Positions 14,609 to 57,485 of a DNA stretch of 64,000 nt are shown here, in pieces. The position numbers and the translations under genes were made by a program. The DNA is taken from NCBI GenBank assembly GCA_964466635.1, contig CAYXNG010000002.1, forward strand, positions 1,832 through 65,831, given 5' to 3'. The stretch is from an uncultured Candidatus Peribacteria bacterium (lineage in GTDB: Bacteria; Patescibacteriota; Gracilibacteria; Peribacterales; Peribacteraceae). The notes beneath the pieces were generated by a model, which saw only the letters and a list, made by a program, of their open reading frames with translations, was not told where the DNA came from and did no database searches. Positions within the stretch are counted from its first letter, which is position 1, and every line of letters begins with the position of its first letter.

Positions 14609-15585
14609 CATCGTGTCTCTACGGACTATCCTTTGCGCCAATGACCGAGATGATGCACGAGGCTTTCCTTGCATCCCGGACTGAGACACAGTCCCGAACC
14701 GATACCGACCCCCCGAAACGGATTCAGCACGCATTGCGGGTTTACCGTGCGTGGATTGCCGGCGCGTTGTTGAGTGTACTTCCGACAACTCTTGCGGCAG
14801 GGGAGCCGACGCCGGTGCAGCCGGTTACCGAGGCAGTGAAAGGATCGCTCGTGATTGCAGGCGGTGGGGTATTGCCATCTATCATCCGAGAGCGGTTTGT
14901 GGAGCTTGCAGGCGGGAAAGAAGCAAAAATCGTCGTCATTCCAACTGCCAGTGCAGACGCCGATATTGCGGAAAAACAACAGCTGTTTCTGTGGGATGGA
15001 CTTCGGCAGAGCGTGAAATCGGCGCAGCTGTTTCACACGCGTGATCGCGCTGTGGCGGATGACGAAGACTCAACGCAGATATTGGATGATGCGACGGGTA
15101 TATGGATAGGCGGCGGGGTGCAAAAGAATGTTGTGGATGCGTATAAGAACACAAAAGTTGTTCGGAAAATATGGCAAGTGTTAGATAAAGGAGGCGTCGT
15201 TGGCGGAACGTCGGCAGGTGCCGCGGTGATGAGTCGGGATATGATTCAGCGGAGCATAAAAAATCCGTTGGATGGGAGTGTGGAGCCGGAAATGGGTGAA
15301 GGATTTGGATTTCTTCCCGGCTCCATTGTTGATCAGCATTTCATCAGTCGTAACCGTCTTGATCGCCTGCAGAAAGCGATGCACTCTCGACCGGGACTGG
15401 TTGGAATCGGTGTTGATGAAGGCACTGCGCTGGAAGTGAAGAGAAGTGGAAAAGTGAGAGTGATTGGGAATTCGACGGTGTCGATCTTCACGACAGGGGA
15501 GCCGGTTATTCTTGGGCATGGTGAGGAGGCCGAACTGTCATCATTCGGCATGCCGACGGTCGAAGTGTCGAATAATATGCCCTAG
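14605..15585 (+). CDS. Peptidase S51 / cyanophycinase-like protein with an N-terminal signal anchor
   Basis: LVIAGGG ... KIVVIPTAS ... GGTSAGAAVMS (Ser nucleophile) ... VDQHFISRNRLDRL. Overlaps the previous gene by 4 nt. Exact start uncertain. Confidence 0.75.
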   Translation: MTSCLYGLSFAPMTEMMHEAFLASRTETQSRTDTDPPKRIQHALRVYRAWIAGALLSVLPTTLAAGEPTPVQPVTEAVKGSLVIAGGGVLPSIIRERFVELAGGKEAKIVVIPTASADADIAEKQQLFLWDGLRQSVKSAQLFHTRDRAVADDEDSTQILDDATGIWIGGGVQKNVVDAYKNTKVVRKIWQVLDKGGVVGGTSAGAAVMSRDMIQRSIKNPLDGSVEPEMGEGFGFLPGSIVDQHFISRNRLDRLQKAMHSRPGLVGIGVDEGTALEVKRSGKVRVIGNSTVSIFTTGEPVILGHGEEAELSSFGMPTVEVSNNMP

Positions 15586-15598
15586 TGACTTTTTAGTG

Positions 15599-17785
15599 TC
15601 ATTTCACGGATAGAGCATTCACGATCATCTTTGCAGCTTCCGCGCGATTGATTGGATCTTCGGGTCTGAATCGGTTTGTCCCATCATCACCCGATATAAT
15701 GCCGAGCGCTGTCGCTGCCGCAATCGCGTCTGCAAAAGGTGAGAGCGGTGACACATCGTCATATGTGATGTCATAACCATCCGTCGGAATCCGGAGTGCT
15801 TCCATCAATGACTGTATTACTGCTCCGCGAGAAGCGGCTGATTGAGGATTGATTCTGCGGTTGAAGACAGACAGCGACATGGCATTTGCCGCATCCAAAT
15901 AAGCGTCAGCCCAGCGCTCCCCGGTCGTCATACCAATCACCGATTGCCCAACAATTACCGTGCACACTTTTGCTAATTGGCCGAGCGTGATGGGGTCAGC
16001 AGGGCCGTACAATCCCAGAGGATTGCCATTCATGTCTTTGTACCCTTCAAAAATCTTTAATTCGGCCAATCTTCGAACATGCTGACCGAACCAGTCGTCG
16101 GTCCACACATCCCGGAAGACGATCACGCGGCTGTCGTCGCCTGTGACGGATACATTCGAATTCGGTGCATCACTGACAACGCCGTTCGTTTCATACACAT
16201 CTTCCACGCCTGCGGCCGTTGCATCATCCGGCGTGTGCGCACTTGTCCTGCGTACCGGTGCGTCGCCGCCGCGCCCCGGCGATCCTCTTCGTCCGCCTCC
16301 TCCCCCTTGCGCAGCTGACGAAGATGACGAAGACGAGGAAGATGACGAGGCAGCAGCTGCGGTCGTGAAGTTCCATGTGGTCGACGCCGTGATTGCCGCC
16401 GTGTGATTCCCCGATGCGTCTTTGAACGCATTGGCCGACCATACGACATAGTACGATGTACCCGCGCTGAGCGTCGTCGACGGGTTCAATGTCAGCTGGG
16501 TCGAACCGTTCCCGGAAAGCAGCGCACCCGAAACGGTGATCGTTTCAACCGTCGAGTCATCGGATGATAATTTGATCGTCAATGTTCCCGTTCCGGCGCG
16601 GGTCGTCTCATCGAATGTCAGTACAAGATCGGCAGCAGTACTTACGTCGGTTGCATCATCGGCAGGGGAACGAGCCGATACGCTCGGTCCCGAGAAGTCG
16701 CCGGTGGTGAAATTCCACGATCCTGTTCCCGTCAGACCGGCAAAGTAAGCACCGGAAGCAGTTTTGAATGCGTTAGGCTGTACGATGACATAGTACGACG
16801 TGCTGTCCGACAACGTGGTCACAGGGTTGATGGTGATGGTCGATGAACCGGTGCCGCTGATGCGCGAACCCGAAGCGGCGATGGTTTCCACGGTGGAGTC
16901 ATCCGACGATTTCTTAATGACGATGCTGCCAGTTCCGGCAATCACCGCACGGTTAAAACGCATGACCAGATTGGCCGATCCGTTGATATTCGTCGCGTTG
17001 TCGGCCGGTACCAGCGCTCCGGACAGTGTCGGGGCGGGGGCGGCATCGGGATCATCGGAGCCGGCGACGATGTTGTTGATCTGGCTTTCCGTAAGCGCGT
17101 AATCGTAAATGCGCACATCATCGATGCGGCCGTTTATTCCCTCGTCTCCGGTGTGACGGACGCCGATATACATTGTTCCGTTGATATCACGCCCTGCAGA
17201 CGATCCGGAGAATTTTTCGACACCTGAAACGAACAGTTTCACGTTCGTGCCGTCGTATGTAAATGTAATATTATGCCAAGTACCGACACTGAGGTTATAT
17301 CCCGTATCCCGCCAGCTACCGTCATAAAATGCAAGTCTGTGAACAGCAACGTCGCCGTACGTTCCGGCAATTTCAAACGCATCACCACTCCAGCTCATTA
17401 TGCGGTCAAAATTCCCTGAAGCGATTTCTCCATCTCCGGTCGGCTTGTACCAGAATGAAAATGATCGTTCCTCCGTTCCACTAAAGTTCAGCGATGAGGG
17501 CCATGCAAACTGAACACCGTCTCCAGTGCTGGTGAAATTCAAAGAGTACGGGTTCGTGAAAGAAACCGACGGCACATCGGTCGACCACGTGGGGTTCGGT
17601 GTCATGAATGTCCCTGTCGCAGTACGCGGATTGCTGTAGACGGATGTGCCAGTTCCCTCGTCAAAACGCCAGTGTGCAATGGGCGCTGTTGCAGCGTATG
17701 CCTTGAAAGAACACAGAAACGACAGGAAAACACCTGCTCCAGCAAGCAGTATCCTGTGTTGTCCATGCTGCAGGGGATGAAGCAT
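15599..17785 (-). CDS. S-layer-type surface protein: signal peptide, LamG/concanavalin-like domain, two Ig-like repeats, poly-Ser/Gly linker, C-terminal SLH-like anchor
   Basis: Start moved to MLHPLQHGQHRILLAGAGVFLSF (ATG at 17785). LamG-like DDVRIYDYALT. Repeated SSDDSTVETI.(A/V)SG Ig-like units. C-terminal FRDVWTDDWFGQHVRRLAELKIFEGY and GTNRFRPEDPINRAEAAKM motifs. Confidence 0.7.
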   Translation of the reverse strand: MLHPLQHGQHRILLAGAGVFLSFLCSFKAYAATAPIAHWRFDEGTGTSVYSNPRTATGTFMTPNPTWSTDVPSVSFTNPYSLNFTSTGDGVQFAWPSSLNFSGTEERSFSFWYKPTGDGEIASGNFDRIMSWSGDAFEIAGTYGDVAVHRLAFYDGSWRDTGYNLSVGTWHNITFTYDGTNVKLFVSGVEKFSGSSAGRDINGTMYIGVRHTGDEGINGRIDDVRIYDYALTESQINNIVAGSDDPDAAPAPTLSGALVPADNATNINGSANLVMRFNRAVIAGTGSIVIKKSSDDSTVETIAASGSRISGTGSSTITINPVTTLSDSTSYYVIVQPNAFKTASGAYFAGLTGTGSWNFTTGDFSGPSVSARSPADDATDVSTAADLVLTFDETTRAGTGTLTIKLSSDDSTVETITVSGALLSGNGSTQLTLNPSTTLSAGTSYYVVWSANAFKDASGNHTAAITASTTWNFTTAAAASSSSSSSSSSSAAQGGGGGRRGSPGRGGDAPVRRTSAHTPDDATAAGVEDVYETNGVVSDAPNSNVSVTGDDSRVIVFRDVWTDDWFGQHVRRLAELKIFEGYKDMNGNPLGLYGPADPITLGQLAKVCTVIVGQSVIGMTTGERWADAYLDAANAMSLSVFNRRINPQSAASRGAVIQSLMEALRIPTDGYDITYDDVSPLSPFADAIAAATALGIISGDDGTNRFRPEDPINRAEAAKMIVNALSVK

Positions 17786-17938
17786 GGCTGCGATTGTATC
17801 AAATGAACCCGATGGGTGAAATTGCACAATAATGCAGGTATTTTCCGGTCGCTTGTATATGCACTCGCACAGATGTTCGTTGTAAAAATATGAAGAACTT
17901 GCTGAGACGAATGGGATGTTTTTGCATATACTGACCAT

Positions 17939-18334
17939 ATGAAAAAACTCTTCGCCCCCATCCTGCTCGCATTGGTTCTTCTCGTTGCTGGCTTCTACGG
18001 ACTCAATGCCTATATCTACCAGGAGAAACAAGGTGATCCGTCGGAGATCGAACGCTATCGCGGGACGCTGAGTGGGGAGGTGGTTTGCTTGCCGCATACG
18101 AATACCAGCGGTCCGACAACGCTCGAATGTGCAATCGGGCTCCGCACCGATACCGGCGAGCACTACGCACTTGATCTTGCGCTGATGTCGCAGCAGGCGG
18201 ATCCGCCGGAGACAGGCGAGCGCATCAGCGCCAACGGTATGATTACGCCGATTGAACTGCTCAGTACCGATTACTGGCGGCAGAACGATATCGACGGCAT
18301 TTTCTCGGTGACGGATTCACTGGAGGGACCCTGA
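17939..18334 (+). CDS. Small exported/membrane-anchored hypothetical protein
   Basis: 131-aa ORF with N-terminal hydrophobic segment MKKLFAPILLALVLLVAGFYGL. Confidence 0.5.
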   Translation: MKKLFAPILLALVLLVAGFYGLNAYIYQEKQGDPSEIERYRGTLSGEVVCLPHTNTSGPTTLECAIGLRTDTGEHYALDLALMSQQADPPETGERISANGMITPIELLSTDYWRQNDIDGIFSVTDSLEGP

Positions 18335-20389: not shown

Positions 20390-20607
20390 AGTGTCGATAG
20401 TGTCTCGTATAGACAATCCGTTTGTCAATATTGGATGTTCCGAACATGGAAGTCGTTTCAACCCTTCGACATGATTCAGCGTCTGAGATCATCAGATGAT
20501 CGCCAGCATGTCGAGTATAAGTGATCCTACACAACAATACATTTTTCTCTTCAATAAAGTGTTTTCGTCACCGGTGTCATACTCGCTTCACCTTCTCCTC
20601 CTTCACG

Positions 20608-22896
20608 ATGCGTTGTGCACGTCGCCTTTCTTCCATTGTCACGATATTCTCATTGCTCTCTCCAGCGTTTGCTCATGCCGCGACGAAGGCGTACATAACG
20701 AATGGATTCTCCAACACTGTTTCGGTATTGAATCTTTCGAATAATCAAACAGTGGATTCCATCAATGCCGGAGGTGCTTCATGGGATGTGGCTATCAACG
20801 GAACCGGTGCATATATCACGCTTTTCAATAGTAATATCGTACGTGTCTACGATACGACGGATAATGAATTGGTAACGACGATTACGGTGGGGGATGGACC
20901 GGTCTATATCGCGTTTTATGGAACAGGTGCGTACATCACAAATTCAAACGATAACAATGTAAGCGTAATCGACACGACAAATTTTTTGGTAGAGAGAACA
21001 ATCGCGGTTGGAAGCAACCCGGGAGGTATTGCTTCGAGCGGTACCGGAATGTACGTCGCAAATAATGGAACCAATACGGTTTCCGTCATTGATGTCACAA
21101 ATAATCTCGTAGAACAGACGTTAACAGTCGGAAGTAATCCCTATGAAATCGCCGCGTCCGGTACCGGTATCTATGTGGCGAATCAAAATGGTTCCACTGT
21201 TTCCATTATTGATAGAAGTAATAACGTCGTGGAAGGAAGCGTCTCTGTCGGGACGAATCCTATCGCCATCGCAATCAGCGGAACAGGTGCGTATGTTGCT
21301 AATTCCGGCAGTGACAATGTGAGCATCATAGATATTTCGAATCGACTGGTGGAGAAAACCGTAACGGTTGGCGGTGATCCAGGTGGTGTGGCAATAAGCG
21401 GAACGGGTGTCTATATATTGAATCGCTCAGGCAATTCGATAAGTGTCATTGATACAGCCAATGGCTTGCTTGAGACAACAATTTCGGGGTTTACCAATCC
21501 AATGCAAATGGCAGTTGCTTCTGATAACGCCACTCTTGCGCCCACGCTCACCGCGCCCGCATCGGGTGCAAGCATTGCTCTCTGCGACGACTTGACGGTG
21601 ACCTACACGCTTCCCGAAAATCCGACGTCGGGATCGGTCGAGATATTTTTCTACAACACATCAACACATACCGGACCCACGTTGACCATGAACAACAGCA
21701 CCGGTGCAAGCTTCAACCTCGATCTGGAAAATTTGACCGCATCGGCAAACGTCGTGTCCGCAACCGGAGGAACAAGTTTAGTAGCAGGCAGTTACGTGAT
21801 GTATCTGAGCTATGAAGATGCATTTGGGAATACAGAGGAAGATGACACGGCGAATCTTACGGTGACAGATTGTCCCGCAAGCAGCTCTTCATCTTCCTCA
21901 TCGGAATCCTCACGGGGAGGCGGGGGTGGCGGTCGCCCGACCATCACACCCGAATATATTCTGGAAGTCGCTGAAAAACGGTTTGGTTCCACGTCCTCAA
22001 GTTCGAAACGGTCGGAGTTTGTGGAAGTGAACGGCCAGGTATTTACCGATGTACGCAGCGGCGAATGGTACGGTACGTTCATCAAAAAAATCGCCGAGCT
22101 CAGAATTTTCGAAGGATATAAAATGTTGGACGGTACGCCGCTGAACCAGTTCGGTCCCGCCGATCCGATCACGCTTGGTCAGCTGGCAAAAGTGGGGACG
22201 ATTCTGTGGGATAAGAAAGACAGGGAGCCCAAGCCGACGGGCAATGAGTGGTTCAAGCCGTATATCGCGACGGTACAGAAACATGAATTAACGGTGTTCC
22301 GCGGATCGCCGAACGCCCTTGCACATGCCACGAGAGGGCACGTCGTGCAAACAATCATGGAAGCGCTGAACTATCCCCTCAGAGACGGCGCATCACCGTA
22401 CGACGATGTTCCCACAGACCATCCGTACATACGGGCGATTGTTACCGCCACGCAGATGGGATTCATCGGCGGTGACAGCGGAACGAATAATTTCCGTCCC
22501 GATGAGCCGATCAACCGCGCGGAAGTGGCGAAGGTCCTCAGTCTCGCGTTGGGACATGTCGGCATCAATTACCTCGATGATCTGCTCTCTGCGACTCCGA
22601 CATCGCGCGCATCAGCGTCAGCATCATCGTCCGTGACTATTTCTTCATCGTCATCATCCGCGTCATCATTGACAAGCAGTACAGCACCCAGCGCGACAGC
22701 CGGAAAAGATATCCGCGTTGTCGCCACCGCCATCCTCAATGTCCGCAGCGATGCGCGCATCGACTCAACGCTTCTCTGGACGGCCAGACAGGGGCAGGAA
22801 TTTGAGGTGTTGCGTATTGTTGCCGAAGATTGGGCGCATGTCCGCGTCTCCGATGGAGGCGAAGGATATGTGTGGGTGCATCATTTGAGTAAGTGA
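20608..22896 (+). CDS. Surface protein: YVTN-type beta-propeller repeats, Ig-like domain, poly-Ser/Gly linker, SLH-like anchor module, C-terminal SH3b-like domain
   Basis: Start at MRCARRLSSIVTIFSLLSPAFAHA. About 8 repeats of GTGAY(I/V)(T/A)N..(S/N)N.VSVID. FTDVRSGEWYGTFIKKIAELRIFEGY and GTNNFRPDEPINRAEVAKV. C-terminal ILNVRSDARIDS...GYVWVHHL. Confidence 0.75.
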   Translation: MRCARRLSSIVTIFSLLSPAFAHAATKAYITNGFSNTVSVLNLSNNQTVDSINAGGASWDVAINGTGAYITLFNSNIVRVYDTTDNELVTTITVGDGPVYIAFYGTGAYITNSNDNNVSVIDTTNFLVERTIAVGSNPGGIASSGTGMYVANNGTNTVSVIDVTNNLVEQTLTVGSNPYEIAASGTGIYVANQNGSTVSIIDRSNNVVEGSVSVGTNPIAIAISGTGAYVANSGSDNVSIIDISNRLVEKTVTVGGDPGGVAISGTGVYILNRSGNSISVIDTANGLLETTISGFTNPMQMAVASDNATLAPTLTAPASGASIALCDDLTVTYTLPENPTSGSVEIFFYNTSTHTGPTLTMNNSTGASFNLDLENLTASANVVSATGGTSLVAGSYVMYLSYEDAFGNTEEDDTANLTVTDCPASSSSSSSSESSRGGGGGGRPTITPEYILEVAEKRFGSTSSSSKRSEFVEVNGQVFTDVRSGEWYGTFIKKIAELRIFEGYKMLDGTPLNQFGPADPITLGQLAKVGTILWDKKDREPKPTGNEWFKPYIATVQKHELTVFRGSPNALAHATRGHVVQTIMEALNYPLRDGASPYDDVPTDHPYIRAIVTATQMGFIGGDSGTNNFRPDEPINRAEVAKVLSLALGHVGINYLDDLLSATPTSRASASASSSVTISSSSSSASSLTSSTAPSATAGKDIRVVATAILNVRSDARIDSTLLWTARQGQEFEVLRIVAEDWAHVRVSDGGEGYVWVHHLSK

Positions 22897-23538: not shown

Positions 23539-23650
23539 TTCTAGAACTCAGGACAGTGTATAGGATGCTCAGGAATATACAGTTACCGTTGCCACTCACA
23601 GCGTAATGTGTAACATTGACATAAGCAATTTATGCTGTTTTAATAGGATT

Positions 23651-24157
23651 ATGAATAGCATAGCAGCCCCAAAGGGTATTCTCATTGAAGGCGTTGAGTG
23701 CGCAGGCAAGACAACCCTGATCAAAGGAATCAGAGACAAAATTGTACCTTGGGATGCCAAGTATCTTGCGCATCAGCCAGGCCAACAGTTCGAACGTTTC
23801 ATGTACGAGTACATGGTTAATAGGAACATTATTTTCAACAGAGGACATTTTAGTGAAGCAATCTATAGCCGACTGTGGGATCGTGAGACGCCTTTCCAGC
23901 CCCATGAATTGCAGGTGCTGAACGATTATGTACGTCGGAATCTGCTGGTGATTTTATGCGATGCAGATACGGATACTTTGGAAAAGCGTTACAGCGAAAG
24001 GAATTATTCCCAGAAAGCAGCTGCGCCTGAACTTGGCAAAATCCGTGATTTGTTCGAGGACCAATTTCAAGGAGTTGAATGTCTGCGGTACACATCGACT
24101 GACCAGCAAAACCTTGAGAAAGTGCTTGAAGAGATTAAGGCAAAAGTCGGTTCCTAA
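23651..24157 (+). CDS. Small P-loop nucleotide/nucleoside-phosphate kinase-like protein
   Basis: Start at MNSIAAPKGILIEGVECAGKTTLIKGIRD (Walker A). About 169 aa. Convergent with the NTP-transferase gene and overlaps it by 4 nt. Confidence 0.6.
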   Translation: MNSIAAPKGILIEGVECAGKTTLIKGIRDKIVPWDAKYLAHQPGQQFERFMYEYMVNRNIIFNRGHFSEAIYSRLWDRETPFQPHELQVLNDYVRRNLLVILCDADTDTLEKRYSERNYSQKAAAPELGKIRDLFEDQFQGVECLRYTSTDQQNLEKVLEEIKAKVGS

Positions 24158-24945
24158 CTTCCAAACAAATCGCAAAACTTACGCATCATACCGTTGCTGA
24201 TCCATTCGTGATAGATACGAAAATCTTCCTCTGTATCCATCTCGATCCAGCCCCTTTGGACTTTAATTGCCTGAACATTCACGCCTTCATCAATCGTGGC
24301 CTGAATCATATCTGTCATATATGCCTGCCTGAAGGACCGTGAATTATACCAACGATCGCTCTTTCCTGATTGTGATTGTTCGTGCTTATCATGCACTTTC
24401 TTAAAGGCCTCCGTCCCGCTTGAGTCAAATTTTAACAATCCGATATAACGTGCATCCATTTCATTTTCTGCAGGTTGTGGTCTGCCTAGTTCAGTGATTT
24501 GTCCTTGCTCATTCAATTGCAGGCTCTCACTATCACTTTGAACGTTCCCCAGCCTCGTTTTCCAGTACTCCTGAAAATTTGTATCGACCGCGACACCGAT
24601 TGAACATTTTGTGTCACGCATACATTCAAGAATTCTCGGCTCGTACACAATATCCGAATAGCAGAGCAGGCAATCTCCCTCAAACTCGGAACGCGCAGCC
24701 ATGAGTGAACCCACCATATTCGTGGTCGCATACTCTGGATTTTCTACATAACGCACATCAGGGTAATTAATCAATTGTCCCATATATCCTCTGACAATCA
24801 CGATGTCATCTACAATCGTGCGAAGGGCTTCCAATTGGTATTCCAATAGAGGTTTACCGTTCAGGGGAACCAAACATTTCGGCTTGTCTTTCGTATGTTC
24901 CCCTAGGCGACTACCCATGCCGGCGGCGAGTACGATGGCTTTCAT
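24154..24945 (-). CDS. Nucleotidyltransferase (sugar-/phospho-substrate cytidylyl/uridylyltransferase fold)
   Basis: MKAIVLAAGMGSRLGEHTKDKPKCLVPLNGKPLLEYQL signature. Confidence 0.8.
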   Translation of the reverse strand: MKAIVLAAGMGSRLGEHTKDKPKCLVPLNGKPLLEYQLEALRTIVDDIVIVRGYMGQLINYPDVRYVENPEYATTNMVGSLMAARSEFEGDCLLCYSDIVYEPRILECMRDTKCSIGVAVDTNFQEYWKTRLGNVQSDSESLQLNEQGQITELGRPQPAENEMDARYIGLLKFDSSGTEAFKKVHDKHEQSQSGKSDRWYNSRSFRQAYMTDMIQATIDEGVNVQAIKVQRGWIEMDTEEDFRIYHEWISNGMMRKFCDLFGS

Positions 24946-25622
24946 TTGTGAGTGAAGTGAGCAATGACACGATGGAGAAGATCTGCATGCGCATTAACAA
25001 AACCAGCATCTGAGCATTTGCGTTCCGGATGCCACATTAATCCAAGAATTGGTAATTTTGTATGCTCGACTGCTTCGATCGCCCCATCATTTGTCACTGC
25101 GCTTCCTATGAGCTCTTTGCCAAGAGTTTTTATACCCAAGCCATGAAAGGAGTTCACAGTCATTTGTTTCTGATTTCCAAGCAACGACCGCAGTAATTCA
25201 GAGGTGAACTGAATTTCATGATCAACAGCTACATGGCTTTTCGGAGAGGCTACTTCAGCGCATGTTCCTTCATAATATGTATTGATGAATTGTAATCCTC
25301 TGCAAATACCTAGAACTGGCTTTCCATCTTCTATGGCGGTGCGCAGAAGCTTCCACTCTGAACGGTCGCGATCAGCACGTGGATCGTCCGAAGTATCGGA
25401 CTCTGATTTTAGAATAATATTGTCTCCTCCAGAGAGGATAAGCATGGCGACATCGCGAATATACTCAGTACAAATTTCAGGTCTGTTGGGGATAAGAACA
25501 GGCTCAAAGCCCTGACGATGTACATAGTCGATAAGATCGTGAGAAAGGGCATCGCGCCACTCGCCATAGTCACTGCCTACCATTCTCATGGAAATGCCGA
25601 TTTTGTTTGGCGATGTACTCAT
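24942..25622 (-). CDS. Class I glutamine amidotransferase-like / peptidase C26 (gamma-glutamyl hydrolase) family protein
   Basis: Nucleophile elbow PVLGICRGLQFIN and LGLMWHPER His motif. Confidence 0.85.
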   Translation of the reverse strand: MSTSPNKIGISMRMVGSDYGEWRDALSHDLIDYVHRQGFEPVLIPNRPEICTEYIRDVAMLILSGGDNIILKSESDTSDDPRADRDRSEWKLLRTAIEDGKPVLGICRGLQFINTYYEGTCAEVASPKSHVAVDHEIQFTSELLRSLLGNQKQMTVNSFHGLGIKTLGKELIGSAVTNDGAIEAVEHTKLPILGLMWHPERKCSDAGFVNAHADLLHRVIAHFTHK

Positions 25623-28036
25623 TGTGATGATCGAATGGAATGATTCGCACAGTCGATTTCTACCAGGGATTGTCCTTTAAGCTGATCGAAGCGTCTACCT
25701 ACTCCAATAGCGGCGGGCAGCCCGAACTCCGCGCAACGAATCGCCATGTGGGATGCAGCTCCTCCATATTTAGTGACAAGTCCTTGGATTTGATGCACGA
25801 ATATCCAGTCATAGCCGGGGTCAGCACTCTCGATGAAAACAATGCGATTCTGTAATTGCTCGTTTGTTTTACCCGCAGTCAAAACTAGTGGACTTCCAAT
25901 GATGTGCTTTTGCGTAATAAAATTTGGCCTGCTTGCAATGAAGCTCACATGCTCGATATCGGAAACATCGGCGATGAGCTCGGGCAAGATGACCAGCTCC
26001 TGCTGTTCATATCTTATGCGTGCGTTGGCACTTGCATTTCTAATGCGACTTATAGCATCAGCATCGGCAGCGCTTCTCATAGACTGAATTGCATTGATGT
26101 CCAAGTAAGATAAATCATCCTTTGTGAGTGAGTGCTGTTGTCCCCATTCGGCAATGAGTTGCAGTGCATCGCTGACATTTTTCGTGAAGAGAAATTTCGC
26201 GTCTTCCCTGCCGACGATGCTCAACTTGGCGAATTCGAGTACATCGTTTACATCCAGTGAAGACCCCGCATTTCTCAAAACAGATTGCATGGCTGCGAGT
26301 TCAGATGCTACCCATTGAAAATCCCTTGCCTCCTCCACATTAGAAGCTATGTCTGATTGAATGGGAGTTGCGGATCCAAAATATAAATCGGTTGCTTCAT
26401 CATAGCGTGGAGATGAGATATCAAAGGTCCCCGGCCTTAAATGCCCATACTTCTGTAGAAATCCCTCAAGCGGCAATTCTCCTTTCCGGACTCGTGTGAG
26501 TTCTTGCCCCATTTGCCCAGCTGCTGTCTCGAATGATTGCAAAAACGCATTATAGGAGGAATCAGAGATGGCACCTTTTGCAACAAAGGATCGAAGCATC
26601 GCATTGCCAACGAATGCCATTCTGGCAATGGCGGAAAAGCCCTTCGTCCCTCTTTTTCTACAATCAGCTACAAGGAATCGAACACATTCCAGCATGTTTT
26701 CCGGTTGTTTCGTTGCAAGTATGGAAGATCTCGCTTTGTCCATTTGAGCCATTTCGGTCATGTAAGACGCGAGATCACCACGACCACCGCGGATTAATGT
26801 CTCGGTGTGTTTGAGTAGGACCCTCCTGACATCAGCGATTTGATGAGGTGACAATCCGGCGGCTTCAAATCGTGGAGTGCAATCGTCGAAAGAAGGAGTG
26901 AAACAATTGGTCGCCACATCAAACTCCACTTTGTCGTGAAGATGTGGTCTTGCCTGGAGGTAATCCAAAGATTCATTGATTATGCGCTCTCTTTGGGAGG
27001 GGCCAATGAGCTTAGGAAGAAGTGAATTGAAACTGTTTCTCACATCCACGTACGGGCGACCTGCTAGGGTGACGAGCAATTTTTCTCCTTCCGGATTGTA
27101 GTAACCAAGCTCTCCTCTCGCTTCTCTCCATGCACTATCCGTAATCAGTGACTCGAACATTGAGAGTGCAAGCGGACGCGGATGACTTCCTACCAATTCT
27201 GCGGGATTCCAGTCCGACATATCACTCAATATTGCCCTGCGTCCTGCGACACCCGCCTTCCGTTCATTGCAGCGGCCAATAGCAATCCTCGTTTCTTCTA
27301 TGACTGACTGAATATTCGACGACTTGAACCGTTCCAGAGCCGCCTTTTGTGCCAAAGGGCGAACCTGAAAAAGGTATAACTGCTGCTTATTGTCGAAAGC
27401 AAATTCGATATCCAAAGCGTTGTTGTCTGCTAGAGACTCAAGTTCTTTGGCACATTCAACCAGCGACGCTAGGCGAGGATCGTTCGGCGGTGCTCCGCCA
27501 TTTCTGTAGATGTAGTGAGTCTGTTGTTCCTCTGAAACTCCACTTGTGATTTTGTCCGTGGCACCAGAATCGTCGTAGTTGATAACGTAGTACGGTGCAC
27601 CGTTTTGTATGTCGCAGGTGAACATGACACCGCAAATTGCAACATCCGTAAGCTGCGGCTGGATTAGAACCTGATGCTTGCCGTCTTTATCTCCGTATGA
27701 TTTCACGACTCGATTGATGGCTTCAAAAATTGCTGATGCATTAGGTCTCTCCACATTGAGTACAGAGTCGAAAGCACCAGCATTCGACGAATCCGCTGTA
27801 TCCTCAGATAAAGCAGAACTGCGAACAATGAGAAGTCCATCACTAAAATGTCTTTGTACATTGCTAACAATATTCGTTGCATACTGCTTCCATTGCTGCA
27901 CCGTAAAGTGGATTTGTGGAAGAATAATCGCGCTTTTCAGGATTGGACGGAGCCTGTCCAGAGTCTCGGCCTTGGTGCCGAGTTCAATGTGCTTTTTGGG
28001 AACATCAGAGCCGATGAGCGGATCTTGCTCAGGCAT
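25619..28036 (-). CDS. PEP-utilising-enzyme family protein (N-terminal PEP/pyruvate-binding ATP-grasp, C-terminal swivelling phosphohistidine domain)
   Basis: 805 aa. N-terminal GTKAETLDRL...IVRSSALSEDT. C-terminal GLVTKYGGAASHMAIRCAEFGLPAAIGVG. Confidence 0.8.
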   Translation of the reverse strand: MPEQDPLIGSDVPKKHIELGTKAETLDRLRPILKSAIILPQIHFTVQQWKQYATNIVSNVQRHFSDGLLIVRSSALSEDTADSSNAGAFDSVLNVERPNASAIFEAINRVVKSYGDKDGKHQVLIQPQLTDVAICGVMFTCDIQNGAPYYVINYDDSGATDKITSGVSEEQQTHYIYRNGGAPPNDPRLASLVECAKELESLADNNALDIEFAFDNKQQLYLFQVRPLAQKAALERFKSSNIQSVIEETRIAIGRCNERKAGVAGRRAILSDMSDWNPAELVGSHPRPLALSMFESLITDSAWREARGELGYYNPEGEKLLVTLAGRPYVDVRNSFNSLLPKLIGPSQRERIINESLDYLQARPHLHDKVEFDVATNCFTPSFDDCTPRFEAAGLSPHQIADVRRVLLKHTETLIRGGRGDLASYMTEMAQMDKARSSILATKQPENMLECVRFLVADCRKRGTKGFSAIARMAFVGNAMLRSFVAKGAISDSSYNAFLQSFETAAGQMGQELTRVRKGELPLEGFLQKYGHLRPGTFDISSPRYDEATDLYFGSATPIQSDIASNVEEARDFQWVASELAAMQSVLRNAGSSLDVNDVLEFAKLSIVGREDAKFLFTKNVSDALQLIAEWGQQHSLTKDDLSYLDINAIQSMRSAADADAISRIRNASANARIRYEQQELVILPELIADVSDIEHVSFIASRPNFITQKHIIGSPLVLTAGKTNEQLQNRIVFIESADPGYDWIFVHQIQGLVTKYGGAASHMAIRCAEFGLPAAIGVGRRFDQLKGQSLVEIDCANHSIRSSQ

Positions 28037-28081
28037 AAAGTGTATTACTATAAACCAATGTATGTGTTAGTCAAATTTCTT

Positions 28082-28633
28082 TTACTCGCCGTCCTCCACG
28101 ATATATTCCCATCCTGGCCTCCAAGCCTTCGTATGCCTCCAGTCTTCTTCCATAGCCTGCTCCCAAGATTTTCCTTTTAACACCACATCAAGAGCCAGCT
28201 GAGGGCCTTGATGAGCCACTATCGCTATGTGTTTGCCCTTATAGGCTTTCTTTATGAATTCGATAAAATCTGCAATTCTTCGCTCGATATCTTTGTAGCT
28301 CTCGCCGCCCGGAAAAGGCTGATCTATGTAATTTGTGAGATTCTGCTTAAAGTCGTCAGCGGGTTTTTGCGTGAAATCCCCGTAGTTTGCCTCACGCAAT
28401 CTTTCATCAACAACTATCGGACAGCGACCTTCAAAAGCAAGATGGGCAGAATCAATGGCTCTTTGAAGGTCAGAGCAAAAAACAACATCGAATTTTTGTG
28501 GTGCCTGAGTGCCAAGCTCCTTTGCCTGTTTTTTCCCTAACTCGGACAACTCGCCATGAGCCCATCCCGTAGCGAGATCCTGCTCGTTATCCGTTGTCGT
28601 GCCGTGGACGAAATACGTGATTTTCAGAGGCAT
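28082..28633 (-). CDS. Histidine phosphatase (phosphoglycerate-mutase-like) superfamily protein
   Basis: Start at MPLKITYFVHGTTTDNE. VVFCSDLQRAIDSA and IVAHQGPQLAL motifs. Confidence 0.7.
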   Translation of the reverse strand: MPLKITYFVHGTTTDNEQDLATGWAHGELSELGKKQAKELGTQAPQKFDVVFCSDLQRAIDSAHLAFEGRCPIVVDERLREANYGDFTQKPADDFKQNLTNYIDQPFPGGESYKDIERRIADFIEFIKKAYKGKHIAIVAHQGPQLALDVVLKGKSWEQAMEEDWRHTKAWRPGWEYIVEDGE

Positions 28634-28662
28634 TGGTGATGAATCATAGCGTACTTTGCTCA

Positions 28663-28703
28663 CTAATAAAACAGTACCCTGCACACTTTCGCGTGCAGGG
28701 TAC
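28663..28703 (-). terminator. Rho-independent terminator downstream of the HD gene
   Basis: Perfect 11-bp inverted repeat gtaccctgcac/gtgcagggtac (28674-28703) with an 8-nt loop, followed on the minus strand by TGTTTTATT. Confidence 0.6.
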
Positions 28704-28729
28704 CGAGCTGACGATCGTCGTGCATCTTC

Positions 28730-29368
28730 TCACGACGCTGCGGCGGCCATCGCAACCGACAGTTCATCCGGACCGAAGGACAGGTACTGGAAGAGTTCGC
28801 GCTCGAGGGTTTTCTCCTCTTGCAGCTTCTGCTCCCACCAGCCCTCGCCCTTGTCGATCCACTTGTGCTTGTAGGCCTCACGGAGATACGCGAGCCGCTC
28901 ATCGAACGAGGTGATCTGATCGAATTGCACGCGCCAGTCGGCGTAGTGCAGGATCTTCAGTTCGATGCAGTCGGTCAGGTACGTCGGGTTTCCCGTCGAG
29001 CCGATCTTCGAGACGAAGACGGCGAATTCGGGGAATTCATCACGGAACATCTCGGCGGCCACCAGCGTCTCGTGCATGCCGGTGAACCGCGTGCGGAGTT
29101 GCTTCCACACCTCAATCTCGCGTTCGCTTGGGGTGTAACCCCATTCGGGACGCGCTTCGAGCGTGGGAAGCGATGCGGTCTTGAACGCGTCATGGAGACG
29201 GCAGCCGATGGTGACGAGTTCGATGTCCACCTCAGCTCCCCCCTCGCGCATCTTCTGCGCAAGGAACGTTCCGACCTCTGCGACTTTGGCGCAGTGCCTA
29301 CGGATCGGCTCCGGAACCGCATAGCGGTCCAGGAGATCGTCGCAGTACTGCTCTGAAGGAATCTTCAT
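28730..29368 (-). CDS. HD-domain metal-dependent phosphohydrolase
   Basis: IGCRLHDAFK (HD dyad) and LHYADWRV. Start chosen at MKIPSEQ (29368), which has GAGG upstream. Confidence 0.75.
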   Translation of the reverse strand: MKIPSEQYCDDLLDRYAVPEPIRRHCAKVAEVGTFLAQKMREGGAEVDIELVTIGCRLHDAFKTASLPTLEARPEWGYTPSEREIEVWKQLRTRFTGMHETLVAAEMFRDEFPEFAVFVSKIGSTGNPTYLTDCIELKILHYADWRVQFDQITSFDERLAYLREAYKHKWIDKGEGWWEQKLQEEKTLERELFQYLSFGPDELSVAMAAAAS

Positions 29369-35360: not shown

Positions 35361-36980
35361 ATGAAGTATTTCCTCTACTGCCGAAAGTCATCTGATCGCG
35401 ATGATAAACAGGTGCTGAGCATTGAAGCTCAGCAGAGAAAGATGCTTGAAATAGCTGAGAAATTGCATCTTGAAATAGTTGCTGTTTTCCTTGAGCAGAA
35501 GTCTGCTTATAAAACAGGAAGACCGCAGTTCAATGAGATGATGGATAGACTTGAGAAAGGAGAGGCAGATGCCATTCTCACGTATCACCTCACGCGCCTA
35601 GCGCGTAATAGCTTTGATGGCGGAAGAATCGTCTATGCCTTGGACGATAAAGTCATCAAGGAAATTCGGACAGAGGACAGTGTTTTCACCAACATCTCTG
35701 ATGAAAAGTTCATCATGAATATTCACTTTGCGATGTCGAAGAAAAGCTCAGACGACACCAGTCAGTTTGTCCGGCGTGATATCGAAACCAAATTGAAGAA
35801 AGGAGAGTTTCCCGGAGTCGCACCACTTGGTTATCTAAATATCGATAAAAGAGGAACGATAGCCGGACGGCATTATTCGCAGGAGCGACAGAAGATGCTA
35901 TTTGATCTGAACCGACCGCTCAGGCGTGAGGAGATCGACCCGATTAACGGGCCAATTGTGAAGAAGATATTTGAAGAGGCAAGCAAGGGCGTGAAGTCGC
36001 TGAAAGCATTGCGTGAATTGAGTTGGGAACTGGGTCTACGTTCCAAGAACGGTAACAAGCTGCCTGAGGCGACGGTATATGCCATTCTCACCAATCCGTA
36101 CTACTACGGAGTGATCCGCATGAACGGAAAGATCTACGCAGAGAATATTCAGCATGAACCTCTCATTAGTAAACAACTTTTTGATCGAGTGTTACAGCTG
36201 TTACATCAACGTGGCAAAGGCGGAGGTGGCGCACAGCGTCATTTCTTCCCCTACACGGGTCTCTTCAAATGTGGCGAATGCGGCTGTGGTATTACGGCGG
36301 AAATACAAAAGGGACATATTTACTATCACTGCACTCACCGAAAGGGATACTGTAGCCAGCGAACGTGGATATCAGAAGAAAATATGGAGGAACAAATTCG
36401 AGGAGTAATCGACAGGCTTGTAATTCCTGCATCATTCGTAGAGTTTGCATTTAAGAAGCTCAAAGATTCGCACAAAATAGAGGCACAGGTGCAGAACACT
36501 GCGCGTGCGAATACAGAGAGAAGATATGGTCAGCTGAAAGCGAAGTTAGATGCCCTCTTGGAACTAAAGCTATCTCCCAATAATACGAAAGGGGAGCTGC
36601 TGAACGATCAGGAATACATGGACCGTAAGTCAACGATCCAGAATGAAATGCACGAACTGGAACAGCAACGGGAATCATTCAAGAAGCAAGCTGACACTTG
36701 GTTGCAAGACTGCGAGAACTTCATCTCCTTCACACAGGAGTTAGGGCAAAGATACGGCATGGTCAGTTTAGAACGTAAGAAGGAGTTGATGTTCCTGCTT
36801 TGTTCGAAAGGTACCGTAACCAACGGTTCTTTGGCTTTCTCTTACCGAGAGCCGTTCGCGACACTCGCTGAATTCCCCTTAGCCGGTAAAGGCCGGTTCG
36901 AACCGCCTTCGTCGCTTTCTGAAAAGAAGAAGTCCGATTTGTTTACAAAGTGGCTCCCCCGACTGGATTCGAACCAGTAA
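35361..36980 (+). CDS. Large serine recombinase (resolvase N-domain, recombinase domain, zinc ribbon, coiled coil)
   Basis: YCRKSSDRDDKQVLSIEAQ (catalytic Ser region), LTRLARNSFDG, CGECGCGITAE...YYHCTH zinc ribbon. The last 30 nt overlap tRNA-Asn on the opposite strand. Confidence 0.9.
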   Translation: MKYFLYCRKSSDRDDKQVLSIEAQQRKMLEIAEKLHLEIVAVFLEQKSAYKTGRPQFNEMMDRLEKGEADAILTYHLTRLARNSFDGGRIVYALDDKVIKEIRTEDSVFTNISDEKFIMNIHFAMSKKSSDDTSQFVRRDIETKLKKGEFPGVAPLGYLNIDKRGTIAGRHYSQERQKMLFDLNRPLRREEIDPINGPIVKKIFEEASKGVKSLKALRELSWELGLRSKNGNKLPEATVYAILTNPYYYGVIRMNGKIYAENIQHEPLISKQLFDRVLQLLHQRGKGGGGAQRHFFPYTGLFKCGECGCGITAEIQKGHIYYHCTHRKGYCSQRTWISEENMEEQIRGVIDRLVIPASFVEFAFKKLKDSHKIEAQVQNTARANTERRYGQLKAKLDALLELKLSPNNTKGELLNDQEYMDRKSTIQNEMHELEQQRESFKKQADTWLQDCENFISFTQELGQRYGMVSLERKKELMFLLCSKGTVTNGSLAFSYREPFATLAEFPLAGKGRFEPPSSLSEKKKSDLFTKWLPRLDSNQ

Positions 36981-37025
36981 CCCTCTCGTTAACAGCGAGA
37001 TGCTCTACCATTGAGCTACAGGGGA
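36951..37025 (-). tRNA. tRNA-Asn (anticodon GTT), CCA encoded
   Basis: The minus strand reads TCCCCTG TA GCTC AATGGTA GAGC A TCTCG CTGTTAA CGAGA GGGTT ACTGG TTCGAAT CCAGT CGGGGGA G CCA. This gives a full cloverleaf. It begins with U and has discriminator G, as in E. coli tRNA-Asn. Confidence 0.9.
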
Positions 37026-57090: not shown

Positions 57091-57485
57091 TGGTGGAGAT
57101 GCCGGGATTCGAACCCGGGTCCAACGTGTACACATGGTGTCCATACGATCATGTTCCATTCAATTCTCGCATCCGCATAAGAATGGAACCAAGAAGCGGA
57201 GCGAGTGATGACGCGGAATAGTGAACAGCCACTGCGTCACATGACTGTCACTCTCACTAATGACGTTTCATCCCGTCAGTGAGAATCGCGGGCGAAACGT
57301 GGTTCCAAAAAGGGAACCTATTAGGCGAACGTCAGAGCTGGCACGAATGCCGGGCTCTGGAAGCGAGCGCCAAGGAAATTGCGTTTTGCAATTATTGGTG
57401 CAACAAGTGGGTATCGGGAACCGTTGCCATCCCGGATCGAGACAAACGCATATGCAGAATCACGCTGTCAAAGCCTGTCATCCCC
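57091..57485 (-). ncRNA. ssrA: tmRNA (SsrA)
   Basis: Minus-strand 5' end GGGGATGACAGGCTTTGACAGCG. 3' end GGACCCGGGTTCGAATCCCGGCATCTCCACCA. The acceptor pairing includes G3:U. Internal tag frame ends in TAA TAG. Confidence 0.85.

Follow-up and report, generated by a model that had tools for sequence, protein, structure and literature searches.

We analysed a 64,000-nucleotide stretch of DNA from an uncultured Candidatus Peribacteria bacterium (assembly GCA_964466635.1, contig CAYXNG010000002.1, positions 1,832 to 65,831 of the forward strand), referred to here as the window. It contains a gene module that is predicted to make a nucleotide with a phosphorus-nitrogen (P-N) bond. At the core of the module are three minus-strand genes, encoding proteins of 805, 226 and 263 amino acids (aa): a glutamine-kinase-family protein, a C26-type hydrolase and a nucleoside triphosphate (NTP) transferase (Table 1). 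Both junctions within this trio are ATGA overlaps on the coding strand, and the same 4-nt overlaps were seen in four related loci (L081, L082, L084 and L086; L and P numbers denote loci and proteins from our searches). On the opposite strand, a gene for a P-loop kinase converges on the trio, such that its stop codon and that of the NTP-transferase gene overlap by 4 nt. The open reading frame (ORF) of the kinase spans 23606-24157; homologues begin at the ATG at 23651, giving a protein of 168 aa, and a start at 23606 is also possible.

The original prediction, a note written from the DNA letters and an ORF list, described a coupled minus-strand trio met by a convergent P-loop gene, and the ORF list and the ATGA junctions bear this out. 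The motifs that it quoted are also present: the sequence around His763 in the 805-aa protein, GICRG and WHPER in the C26 protein, and LAAGMGSRLG in the NTP-transferase. Its inventory was right for the trio and the kinase but overlooked an HD-domain gene, a histidine phosphatase gene and a gene for a sulfotransferase-fold protein. The first two are conserved partners located upstream on the strand of the trio, beyond the interval that the note had covered.

Table 1. Features of the module and its surroundings in the window
Feature	Position	Strand	Basis or remark
L-glutamine-kinase-family protein, 805 aa, Cj1418-like	25619-28036	-	NF004508; PPDK_N and PEP-utilizers
Class I amidotransferase-like C26 hydrolase, 226 aa, Cj1417-like (putative gamma-glutamyl-NDP-amidate hydrolase)	24942-25622	-	NF045546; Pfam
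NTP_transf_3 nucleotidyltransferase, 263 aa, Cj1416-like (putative phosphoglutamine nucleotidylyltransferase)	24154-24945	-	Pfam; synteny
YorR-like P-loop nucleotide kinase, 168 aa, convergent with the operon	23651-24157	+	AlphaFold2 model; fold search
HD-domain phosphohydrolase, 212-216 aa	28730-29380	-	Conservation; AlphaFold2 model; probable start 29368
Histidine phosphatase (His_Phos_1)	28082-28684	-	Pfam; real start probably near 28636
Sulfotransfer_3-family protein, 275 aa, GRSGST loop	29535-30362	+	Pfam; tentative accessory, possible transferase
HIT-family protein, 154 aa	22966-23430	-	Pfam HIT, 38 bits; adjacent only, link unproven
Promoter-like site just upstream of the 805-aa gene	28047-28074	-	Consensus match only, 10/12
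Terminator-like hairpin, strong, between the HD and phosphatase genes	28672-28705	-	Consensus match only
IetS subtilase, 809 aa	30616-33045		PADLOC, strong match
IetA AAA ATPase, 295 aa	33054-33941		PADLOC, strong match
Large serine recombinase, 539 aa, XisF/Ccr-like	35361-36980		End overlaps the 3' end of tRNA-Asn
tRNA-Asn	36951-37025	-	
SLH-domain surface protein	15599-18163		Big_5, Laminin_G_3
SLH-domain surface protein	20521-22896		Beta-propeller, SH3_3
Short-form alanine-tRNA ligase, 650 aa	43135-45087		PRK01584 type
Transfer-messenger RNA (tmRNA) gene	57091-57485		

The 805-aa protein matched the NCBIfam model NF004508 (PRK05849) with 842.8 bits against a cutoff of 501, over residues 13-802 of 805. 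Models for PpsA and other phosphoenolpyruvate (PEP) synthases reached at most 63 bits against cutoffs of 598-1063, and the rifamycin phosphotransferase (Rph) model reached 44.5 bits against a cutoff of 999. With 843 bits on the one side and at most 63 and 44.5 on the other, the protein is set apart from these two families; a grouping with either would have spoken against the original prediction. Pfam detected PPDK_N (PF01326), the ATP-grasp part, in the N-terminal region and PEP-utilizers (PF00391), the swivelling domain, in the C-terminal region. The segment GGAASHMAIRCAEFGLPA holds His763 (in GGAASHM), a residue that is invariant in 15 homologues. More than 5392 homologues were found at E<=1e-10 in a collection of 5.8 billion proteins; typical family members are ~35-42% identical to the window protein. 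Several homologues carry the JGI name "glutamine kinase", among them P0118, which scored 880 bits on NF004508, and we infer that this model includes Cj1418 itself. Thus, the 805-aa protein is predicted to belong to the L-glutamine kinase family and to carry out ATP-dependent N-phosphorylation of L-glutamine. Many relatives are longer, at ~1010-1050 aa (for example, P0004, P0006 and P0010), and several of these have an N-terminal NTP_transf_3 domain and are natural fusions of Cj1416-like and Cj1418-like proteins.

For the 226-aa protein, in which Pfam recognised Peptidase_C26/GATase and which contains a triad of Cys107 (GICRG), His198 and Glu200 (WHPER), the best NCBIfam match was NF045546, gamma-glutamyl-CDP-amidate hydrolase. 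The score of 108.7 bits was twice that of PuuD (53.6 bits; cutoff 266); a PuuD-type protein would have spoken against the original prediction. The 263-aa protein matched Pfam NTP_transf_3 (PF12804) with 64.7 bits and has the motif LAAGMGSRLG (GxGxR loop) in its N-terminal region. Its closest solved structure in a PDB sequence search was LicC, a CTP:phosphocholine cytidylyltransferase. No NCBIfam model for Cj1416 was among the matches listed (the best 25 of 39), and PDB sequence searches for solved relatives of Cj1416-Cj1418 gave only generic PpsA, C26 and LicC matches.

We examined how often the three genes occur together in a sample of 80 genomes or loci returned via the 805-aa protein. Using tblastn, a C26 gene was found in 73 of the 80 loci and an NTP-transferase gene in 71 (29-52% identical to that of the window). 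Both genes nearly always followed directly downstream of the kinase gene, with strand and order preserved. This order (kinase, C26, NTP-transferase) is kept in ~70 of the 80 genomes, bacterial as well as archaeal, confirming that the linkage recurs. We conclude that the linkage of the trio is far beyond chance. Since the 805-aa protein does not side with Rph or PpsA, the C26 protein does not side with PuuD, and the linkage recurs, the core interpretation stands. A scan that used one genome per species detected a full-length relative of the 805-aa protein in at least 597 species-representative genomes, including Pseudomonas, Cohnella, Aeromonas, Peregrinibacteria, Nomurabacteria, Woesearchaeota and Methanosarcinales, with a best identity of 42%. 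The trio has also been reported outside Campylobacter before, in Borg elements. Because it is so widespread in bacteria and archaea, including candidate phyla radiation (CPR) and DPANN lineages, its presence in a CPR genome is not surprising in itself, and the suggestion that a P-N pathway would be new to this kind of organism goes too far.

In Campylobacter jejuni, the Cj1418, Cj1417 and Cj1416 genes are required for phosphoramidate modification, and the canonical family serves to modify the capsule. The pathway proceeds through glutamine phosphate and CDP-glutamine to cytidine diphosphoramidate. We take the trio of the window to represent probable counterparts of Cj1418, Cj1417 and Cj1416, as originally proposed, on the strength of NF004508, of NF045546 as the best match, of JGI names and of the conserved gene order. 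The window shares with the C. jejuni pathway for the O-methyl phosphoramidate (MeOPN) donor the three families, their order of kinase, hydrolase and transferase, the tight operon, the catalytic residues and the predicted product, a nucleoside diphosphoramidate (NDP-amidate), probably cytidine diphosphoramidate. However, the window trio lies in an island of a CPR bacterium rather than in a capsule or glycan locus, and there is no methyltransferase of the Cj1419/Cj1420 type. No Cj1421/Cj1422 transferase was recognisable in the window, though no reference sequence or model was compared. To our knowledge, the modification of the Campylobacter capsule is the only setting in which biochemical work has addressed P-N bond formation via glutamine kinase.

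Clustering of the neighbouring genes in the 80 loci revealed an APS_kinase-family gene (PRK05541 subfamily; APS, adenosine 5'-phosphosulfate) after the NTP-transferase gene in 26 and Methyltransf_11 genes in at least 21. Genes of sugar-nucleotide metabolism (DegT aminotransferase, epimerase/dehydratase, NeuB and UDP-GlcNAc 2-epimerase) were also frequent. Loci with an APS-type kinase, methyltransferases and sugar-nucleotide genes represent the canonical, glycan-linked pathway. Three further proteins with poor or no annotation recur in canonical loci: a membrane protein of 425 aa that has a GDSF motif in 11 loci (for example, L006:8051-9328; also L005, L016 and L027), a 205-aa protein without a Pfam match in 15 (L041:7557-8174) and a formyltransferase-like 244-aa protein in 19 (L045:9256-9990). 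They are candidates for transferase or tailoring functions that the widespread pathway still lacks.

The module in the window falls into a distinct clade that comprises about 10 loci. Its nearest relatives are L086 (97%), L081 (59%), L082 (50%), L083 and L085 (46-47%), L084 (44%) and L018 (42%), together with the fragments L096, L098 and L103, and all of these also hold the YorR-like kinase and the HD protein. In a neighbour-joining tree, the glutamine kinases of the window, L018 and L081-L085 formed one clade; all seven come from loci that have both of these genes. Among the 80 sampled loci, only L018, itself a member of the clade, has the YorR-like kinase and HD genes. Conversely, genes typical of the canonical pathway are missing. 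Using tblastn with the APS-type kinase of a canonical locus, no APS kinase was detected in the window or in the clade loci, and there was no S-adenosylmethionine (SAM) methyltransferase (Methyltransf_11/25) among the proteins of the window island, as the original prediction had noted for the surroundings of the module. DegT, epimerase, NeuB and UDP-GlcNAc 2-epimerase genes are absent from the window, and in none of the clade loci examined does the module have a glycosyltransferase or sugar-nucleotide gene close by.

Both clade-specific genes are also found in a Pectobacterium versatile contig (L087; JAINZR010000013.1, 1-7864) with a more distant glutamine kinase. The operon in this contig has the order glutamine kinase, C26, NTP-transferase, HD, CYTH, YorR-like kinase, TauE permease, a 294-aa protein and NUDIX. 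Homologues of the HD protein (WP_224653001.1) are known from P. carotovorum and P. aroidearum as well as P. versatile, and this one P. versatile contig was checked for the complete operon. Since the operon occurs in cultivable Pectobacterium, the fate of the phosphoramidate donor outside Campylobacter is directly testable.

The convergent kinase gave only weak AAA_28 and Thymidylate_kin matches in Pfam, and neither Pfam nor NCBIfam placed it in the APS_kinase family. Its AlphaFold2 model (predicted local distance difference test score, pLDDT, 88.8) best matched YorR of the Bacillus subtilis phage SPbeta (PDB 2axp and 3kb2), with a template modelling (TM) score of 0.78 over the whole chain at 17% identity, followed by PPK2, deoxynucleoside kinases and thymidylate kinases. 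YorR was also the top PDB sequence match. We found no established function for YorR in the literature; one of its PDB entries is titled "in complex with phosphorylated GDP". Judging from the model, the protein is a kinase directed at nucleotides rather than a homologue of APS kinases, in line with the earlier view that it resembles deoxynucleoside and thymidylate kinases. The kinase is present in every clade locus (42-96% identity) and belongs to a rare family, of which a set of 1.84 billion representatives holds 95 at E<=1e-10. Family members include tandem kinase-kinase proteins and fusions with HAD/PNK3P phosphatase, dCTP-deaminase and homing-endonuclease domains. The presence of one PNK3P-fused relative raised the possibility of a polynucleotide kinase, but no such structure was among the top 50 fold matches, and we retain this idea only as a minor rival.

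Where does this kinase fit? Cj1415, the cytidine diphosphoramidate 3'-kinase, is a member of the APS-kinase family (PF01583). Like the kinase of the window, it is a small P-loop kinase encoded beside the NTP-transferase. Unlike Cj1415, the window kinase resembles YorR, deoxynucleoside kinases and thymidylate kinases, is encoded convergently rather than co-directionally, and always occurs with the HD hydrolase. Thus, the proposal that the four genes match Cj1415-Cj1418 was correct for the trio but not for the kinase, which is of a different family, and there is no homologous four-gene set. In L018, L082 and L084, however, the YorR-like kinase gene is co-directional and right after the NTP-transferase gene, the slot of the canonical APS-type kinase, and the two types of kinase never co-occur in the loci compared. 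Since they share a slot and are mutually exclusive, we favor non-orthologous displacement, in which the YorR-like kinase would perform a Cj1415-like step.

The most conserved clade-specific partner is the HD protein. It is ~50-82% identical across all clade loci and, in most of them, more conserved than the genes of the trio. It is also rare, as 5.8 billion proteins yielded 48 relatives. One relative, at 83% identity, is from a metagenome-assembled genome (MAG) of Candidatus Peribacteraceae (phylum Peregrinibacteriota). The conserved residues of the HD protein (H25, H59-D60, H99, H141 and D144) are compatible with a predicted two-metal site. The AlphaFold2 model (pLDDT 93) had YqeK-type HD hydrolases as its nearest folds (TM ~0.45), while the best PDB sequence match was the OxsA-like "oxetanocin-like protein" 1xx7; YfbR was a weak match only. 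The HD protein shares its fold, size and H...HD...H...H...D pattern with YqeK (a diadenosine tetraphosphate hydrolase), 1xx7 and the 5'-deoxynucleotidase YfbR, but it belongs to a separate, rare family, with 13-18% identity and TM ~0.45. Although the ligand pattern would also be compatible with an oxygenase of the PhnZ/MIOX type, no such structure was among the fold matches, and we set this assignment aside. Relatives below ~42% identity are not linked to the module and often lie beside housekeeping genes of small-genome archaea and bacteria.

The kinase and HD genes also occur together elsewhere. In L090:7728-10687, the genes for a radical-SAM enzyme of 300 aa and a NUDIX protein stand in a row with those for a YorR-like kinase and an HD protein, which are 38% and 49% identical to their window counterparts, on a contig that has TrbC/TrbL/VirB4-like conjugation genes and no glutamine-kinase trio. 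The pair therefore appears to be a separable, reusable unit. We found no member of the HD family in viral contigs, and glutamine kinase in only one giant-virus MAG contig and two fragments; for these reasons we conclude that the module is not phage-borne. In the giant-virus contig (IMG/VR; L093:6864-10163), C26, NTP-transferase and glutamine kinase relatives, 31-33% identical to those of the window, are encoded in a row.

A phosphatase is nearly always present in the clade, and its family varies, such that we refer to a phosphatase slot. A His_Phos_1 protein (106 bits in Pfam for that of the window) is encoded at or near the module in the window, L081, L082, L086, L096, L099 and L103; the slot is occupied by NT5C in L083 and L085, by HAD in L084, and by NUDIX and CYTH in L087. 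The Sulfotransfer_3 protein of the window scored 41.2 bits in Pfam (cutoff 27) and had only sub-threshold sulfotransferase matches among PDB sequences. In L081, a 60% identical homologue is again a neighbour of the module but occupies another relative position; the gene is absent from the other clade loci.

The module resides in an apparent island. Between ~18 and 36 kb of the window, the GC content drops from 0.52-0.59 to 0.39-0.50. Directly beside the module, in the stretch of lowest GC (0.39), IetS and IetA make up a complete Iet anti-phage system. Farther on, the overlap between the end of a large serine recombinase gene and the 3' end of tRNA-Asn looks like the junction of an integrative element. 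With the GC dip, IetAS, the recombinase and tRNA-Asn, the mobile or defence island setting that had been proposed is plausible. A related recombinase is encoded beside the HD gene in the fragment L096. In L082, the module is directly followed by a PDC-S39 candidate (DUF7380/EMARD_N, 15132-16793) and has a 1510-aa CHAT-TPR protein on its other side; TIR proteins flank the module in L084, as do a ParB-methyltransferase and a Cas4-like gene in L081. PADLOC-DB 2.0 gave no meaningful match for the five module proteins or the sulfotransferase-fold protein; weak matches were of the HIT protein to ThsC (E 5e-4) and of the 805-aa protein to a DRT model (E 0.0018).

The clade combines a kinase of non-homologous type and a rare HD hydrolase with a phosphatase slot and a defence or mobile setting, and it lacks methyltransferase and glycan genes. 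This clade-specific combination is uncharacterised, and we found no literature on it. The small, coherent clade has exchanged the downstream half of the pathway for a nucleotide kinase that is uncharacterised and an HD hydrolase that is rare, and its module has left glycan loci for defence or mobile islands.

A model that accommodates these data, to which we assign a probability of about 0.6, is that the trio makes a nucleoside diphosphoramidate, the YorR-like kinase takes the Cj1415 step, and the HD protein and phosphatase trim or recycle nucleotides. By orthology, we regard the first three steps as fairly safe. The 805-aa protein would use His763 to convert ATP and L-glutamine to glutamine phosphate, the NTP-transferase would join phosphoglutamine to a nucleotide from NTP, yielding NDP-glutamine, and the C26 hydrolase, with Cys107, His198 and Glu200, would remove glutamate to leave NDP-NH2. 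With moderate confidence, from gene position and mutual exclusion, we propose that the YorR-like kinase then phosphorylates the NDP-amidate to an activated donor, having displaced Cj1415 non-orthologously. The last part is more speculative: the HD enzyme and the variable phosphatase might trim the product or recycle a nucleotide product or by-product. As for an acceptor, no glycan genes that might encode one are found beside the module.

Several observations weigh against this model. Orthology to Cj1415-Cj1418 was drawn indirectly, from NCBIfam models, JGI names and synteny. The C26 protein falls short of the curated cutoff of NF045546 (108.7 versus 250 bits). However, C26 proteins of canonical loci that have both an APS-type kinase and a methyltransferase, examined as a control, scored only 114-131 bits; the cutoff is thus narrow, and the shortfall is no sign of another function. 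The fold of the kinase is that of nucleoside monophosphate or deoxynucleoside kinases, with no direct evidence for phosphorylation of a 3'-OH, and the fold matches of the HD protein are weak (TM about 0.45). As L090 holds the kinase and HD pair but no trio, the pair may serve a separate function and does not have to act on the amidate, so that its role on this compound is uncertain. Within the window, searches for an att-type repeat of the tRNA-Asn 3' end yielded only chance 11-mers, and the limits of the island are not marked.

Another explanation would be that there is no P-N chemistry at all, and that a PEP synthase or Rph relative and a PuuD-type hydrolase are adjacent by chance. Although the window proteins share domains with those families, their PEP-synthase, Rph and PuuD scores are 10- to 20-fold below the cutoffs, the NF004508 cutoff is passed and the three-gene order is kept in ~70 of 80 genomes; family scores and gene order effectively refute this idea. 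It is also possible, if improbable, that the kinase, HD protein and phosphatases are an independent set for nucleotide salvage or for healing nucleic-acid ends that only travels with the trio. The HD homologues below ~42% identity, which lack the trio and often lie near housekeeping genes in small-genome archaea and bacteria, are what one would expect in that case, as are the pair without the trio in L090 and P0200, in which a PNK3P-type phosphatase is fused to the kinase. Yet the kinase and HD genes are found in every clade locus, are translationally coupled to or abut the NTP-transferase gene in L082 and L084, and are paired even with the distant glutamine kinase of Pectobacterium, and the top 50 fold matches included no polynucleotide-kinase structure.

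If the trio does make an NDP-amidate, its product might decorate the cell surface, with activated phosphoramidate passed to an envelope glycan or protein by a transferase encoded elsewhere or by the sulfotransferase-fold protein. In a variant of this idea, the latter protein would use 3'-phospho-NDP-amidate as a look-alike of 3'-phosphoadenosine 5'-phosphosulfate (PAPS), leaving a 3',5'-bisphosphate nucleotide for the phosphatase to recycle. Surface decoration is what the canonical family does in capsule modification, the loci of many other genomes lie among sugar-nucleotide genes, and unmethylated phosphoramidate is known in the lipopolysaccharide of Xanthomonas and Shewanella. The Sulfotransfer_3 gene flanks the module here and in L081, genes for SLH-domain surface proteins lie nearby, and a phosphatase of one family or another is nearly always present. 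PAPS-dependent sulfation, with its APS kinase, sulfotransferase and PAP phosphatase, offers a parallel, since the window and L081 likewise bring together the genes for an NDP-X donor with those for a kinase, a phosphatase and a protein of sulfotransferase fold, but the parallel goes no further than analogy. Only 2 of ~10 loci have the sulfotransferase-fold gene, we found no literature link between Cj1421/Cj1422 and the sulfotransferase fold, and no clade locus has a glycosyltransferase or sugar-nucleotide gene near the module, leaving surface decoration a rather doubtful prospect. We hold just as tentatively the idea that the five-gene cassette (glutamine kinase, C26, NTP-transferase, YorR-like kinase and HD protein), with its phosphatase, offers a new way of making a soluble nucleotide or nucleoside analogue with a P-N bond, rather than a glycan decoration; the analogue would act as an antiviral, antimetabolite or signal in phage defence or microbial antagonism. 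It could be a 3'-phospho-NDP-amidate, a further phosphorylated NDP-amidate or a dephosphorylated derivative. By analogy to the kinases found with viperin-like enzymes, or to OxsA with OxsB in the oxetanocin pathway, the kinase and HD protein would tailor the nucleotide, as a reusable unit that could also be coupled to a radical-SAM enzyme. Defence or mobile neighbours in four loci (IetAS; PDC-S39; TIR; methyltransferase and Cas4-like gene) are in keeping with such a product, and so are the coupling of the pair to radical-SAM and NUDIX genes on a conjugative element, the "oxetanocin-like protein" as the best PDB sequence match of the HD profile, the fusions of kinase-family members to dCTP-deaminase domains and HAD phosphatases, and the TauE-type permease of the Pectobacterium operon. 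Against it, no module protein matches a PADLOC model, no effector or sensor is evident, the HD family is not found in viral contigs, we found no literature linking glutamine kinase to phage defence, and the position in defence islands is guilt by association only. If true, the product of the cassette would represent a new class of P-N compound, be it a natural product or an immune metabolite.

Promoter-like consensus sites were rarer in the region than in shuffled sequence; one such site lies just upstream of the 805-aa gene, and the terminator-like hairpin upstream of the phosphatase gene has a 15-bp stem with 9 G-C pairs, followed by TTTTATT. These two elements weakly suggest that the trio may form its own transcription unit. 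The HIT gene is not beside the module in any other clade locus compared. Within the HD gene, an antisense ORF (28820-29356, plus strand, 178 aa) had tblastn matches in related loci, but we rejected it as a gene, as the matches are an artefact that reflects the conserved HD gene on the opposite strand.

Elsewhere in the window, the two SLH-domain proteins encoded upstream of the island suggest an envelope that bears an S-layer. Many large ORFs of the window, including very large ones of 1241, 885 and 854 aa, have no NCBIfam match, which fits a poorly characterised lineage. With the short form of the alanine-tRNA ligase and the Peribacteraceae relative of the HD protein, they point to a probable CPR host. 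Also present are the genes for a short-form alanine-tRNA ligase and for tmRNA.

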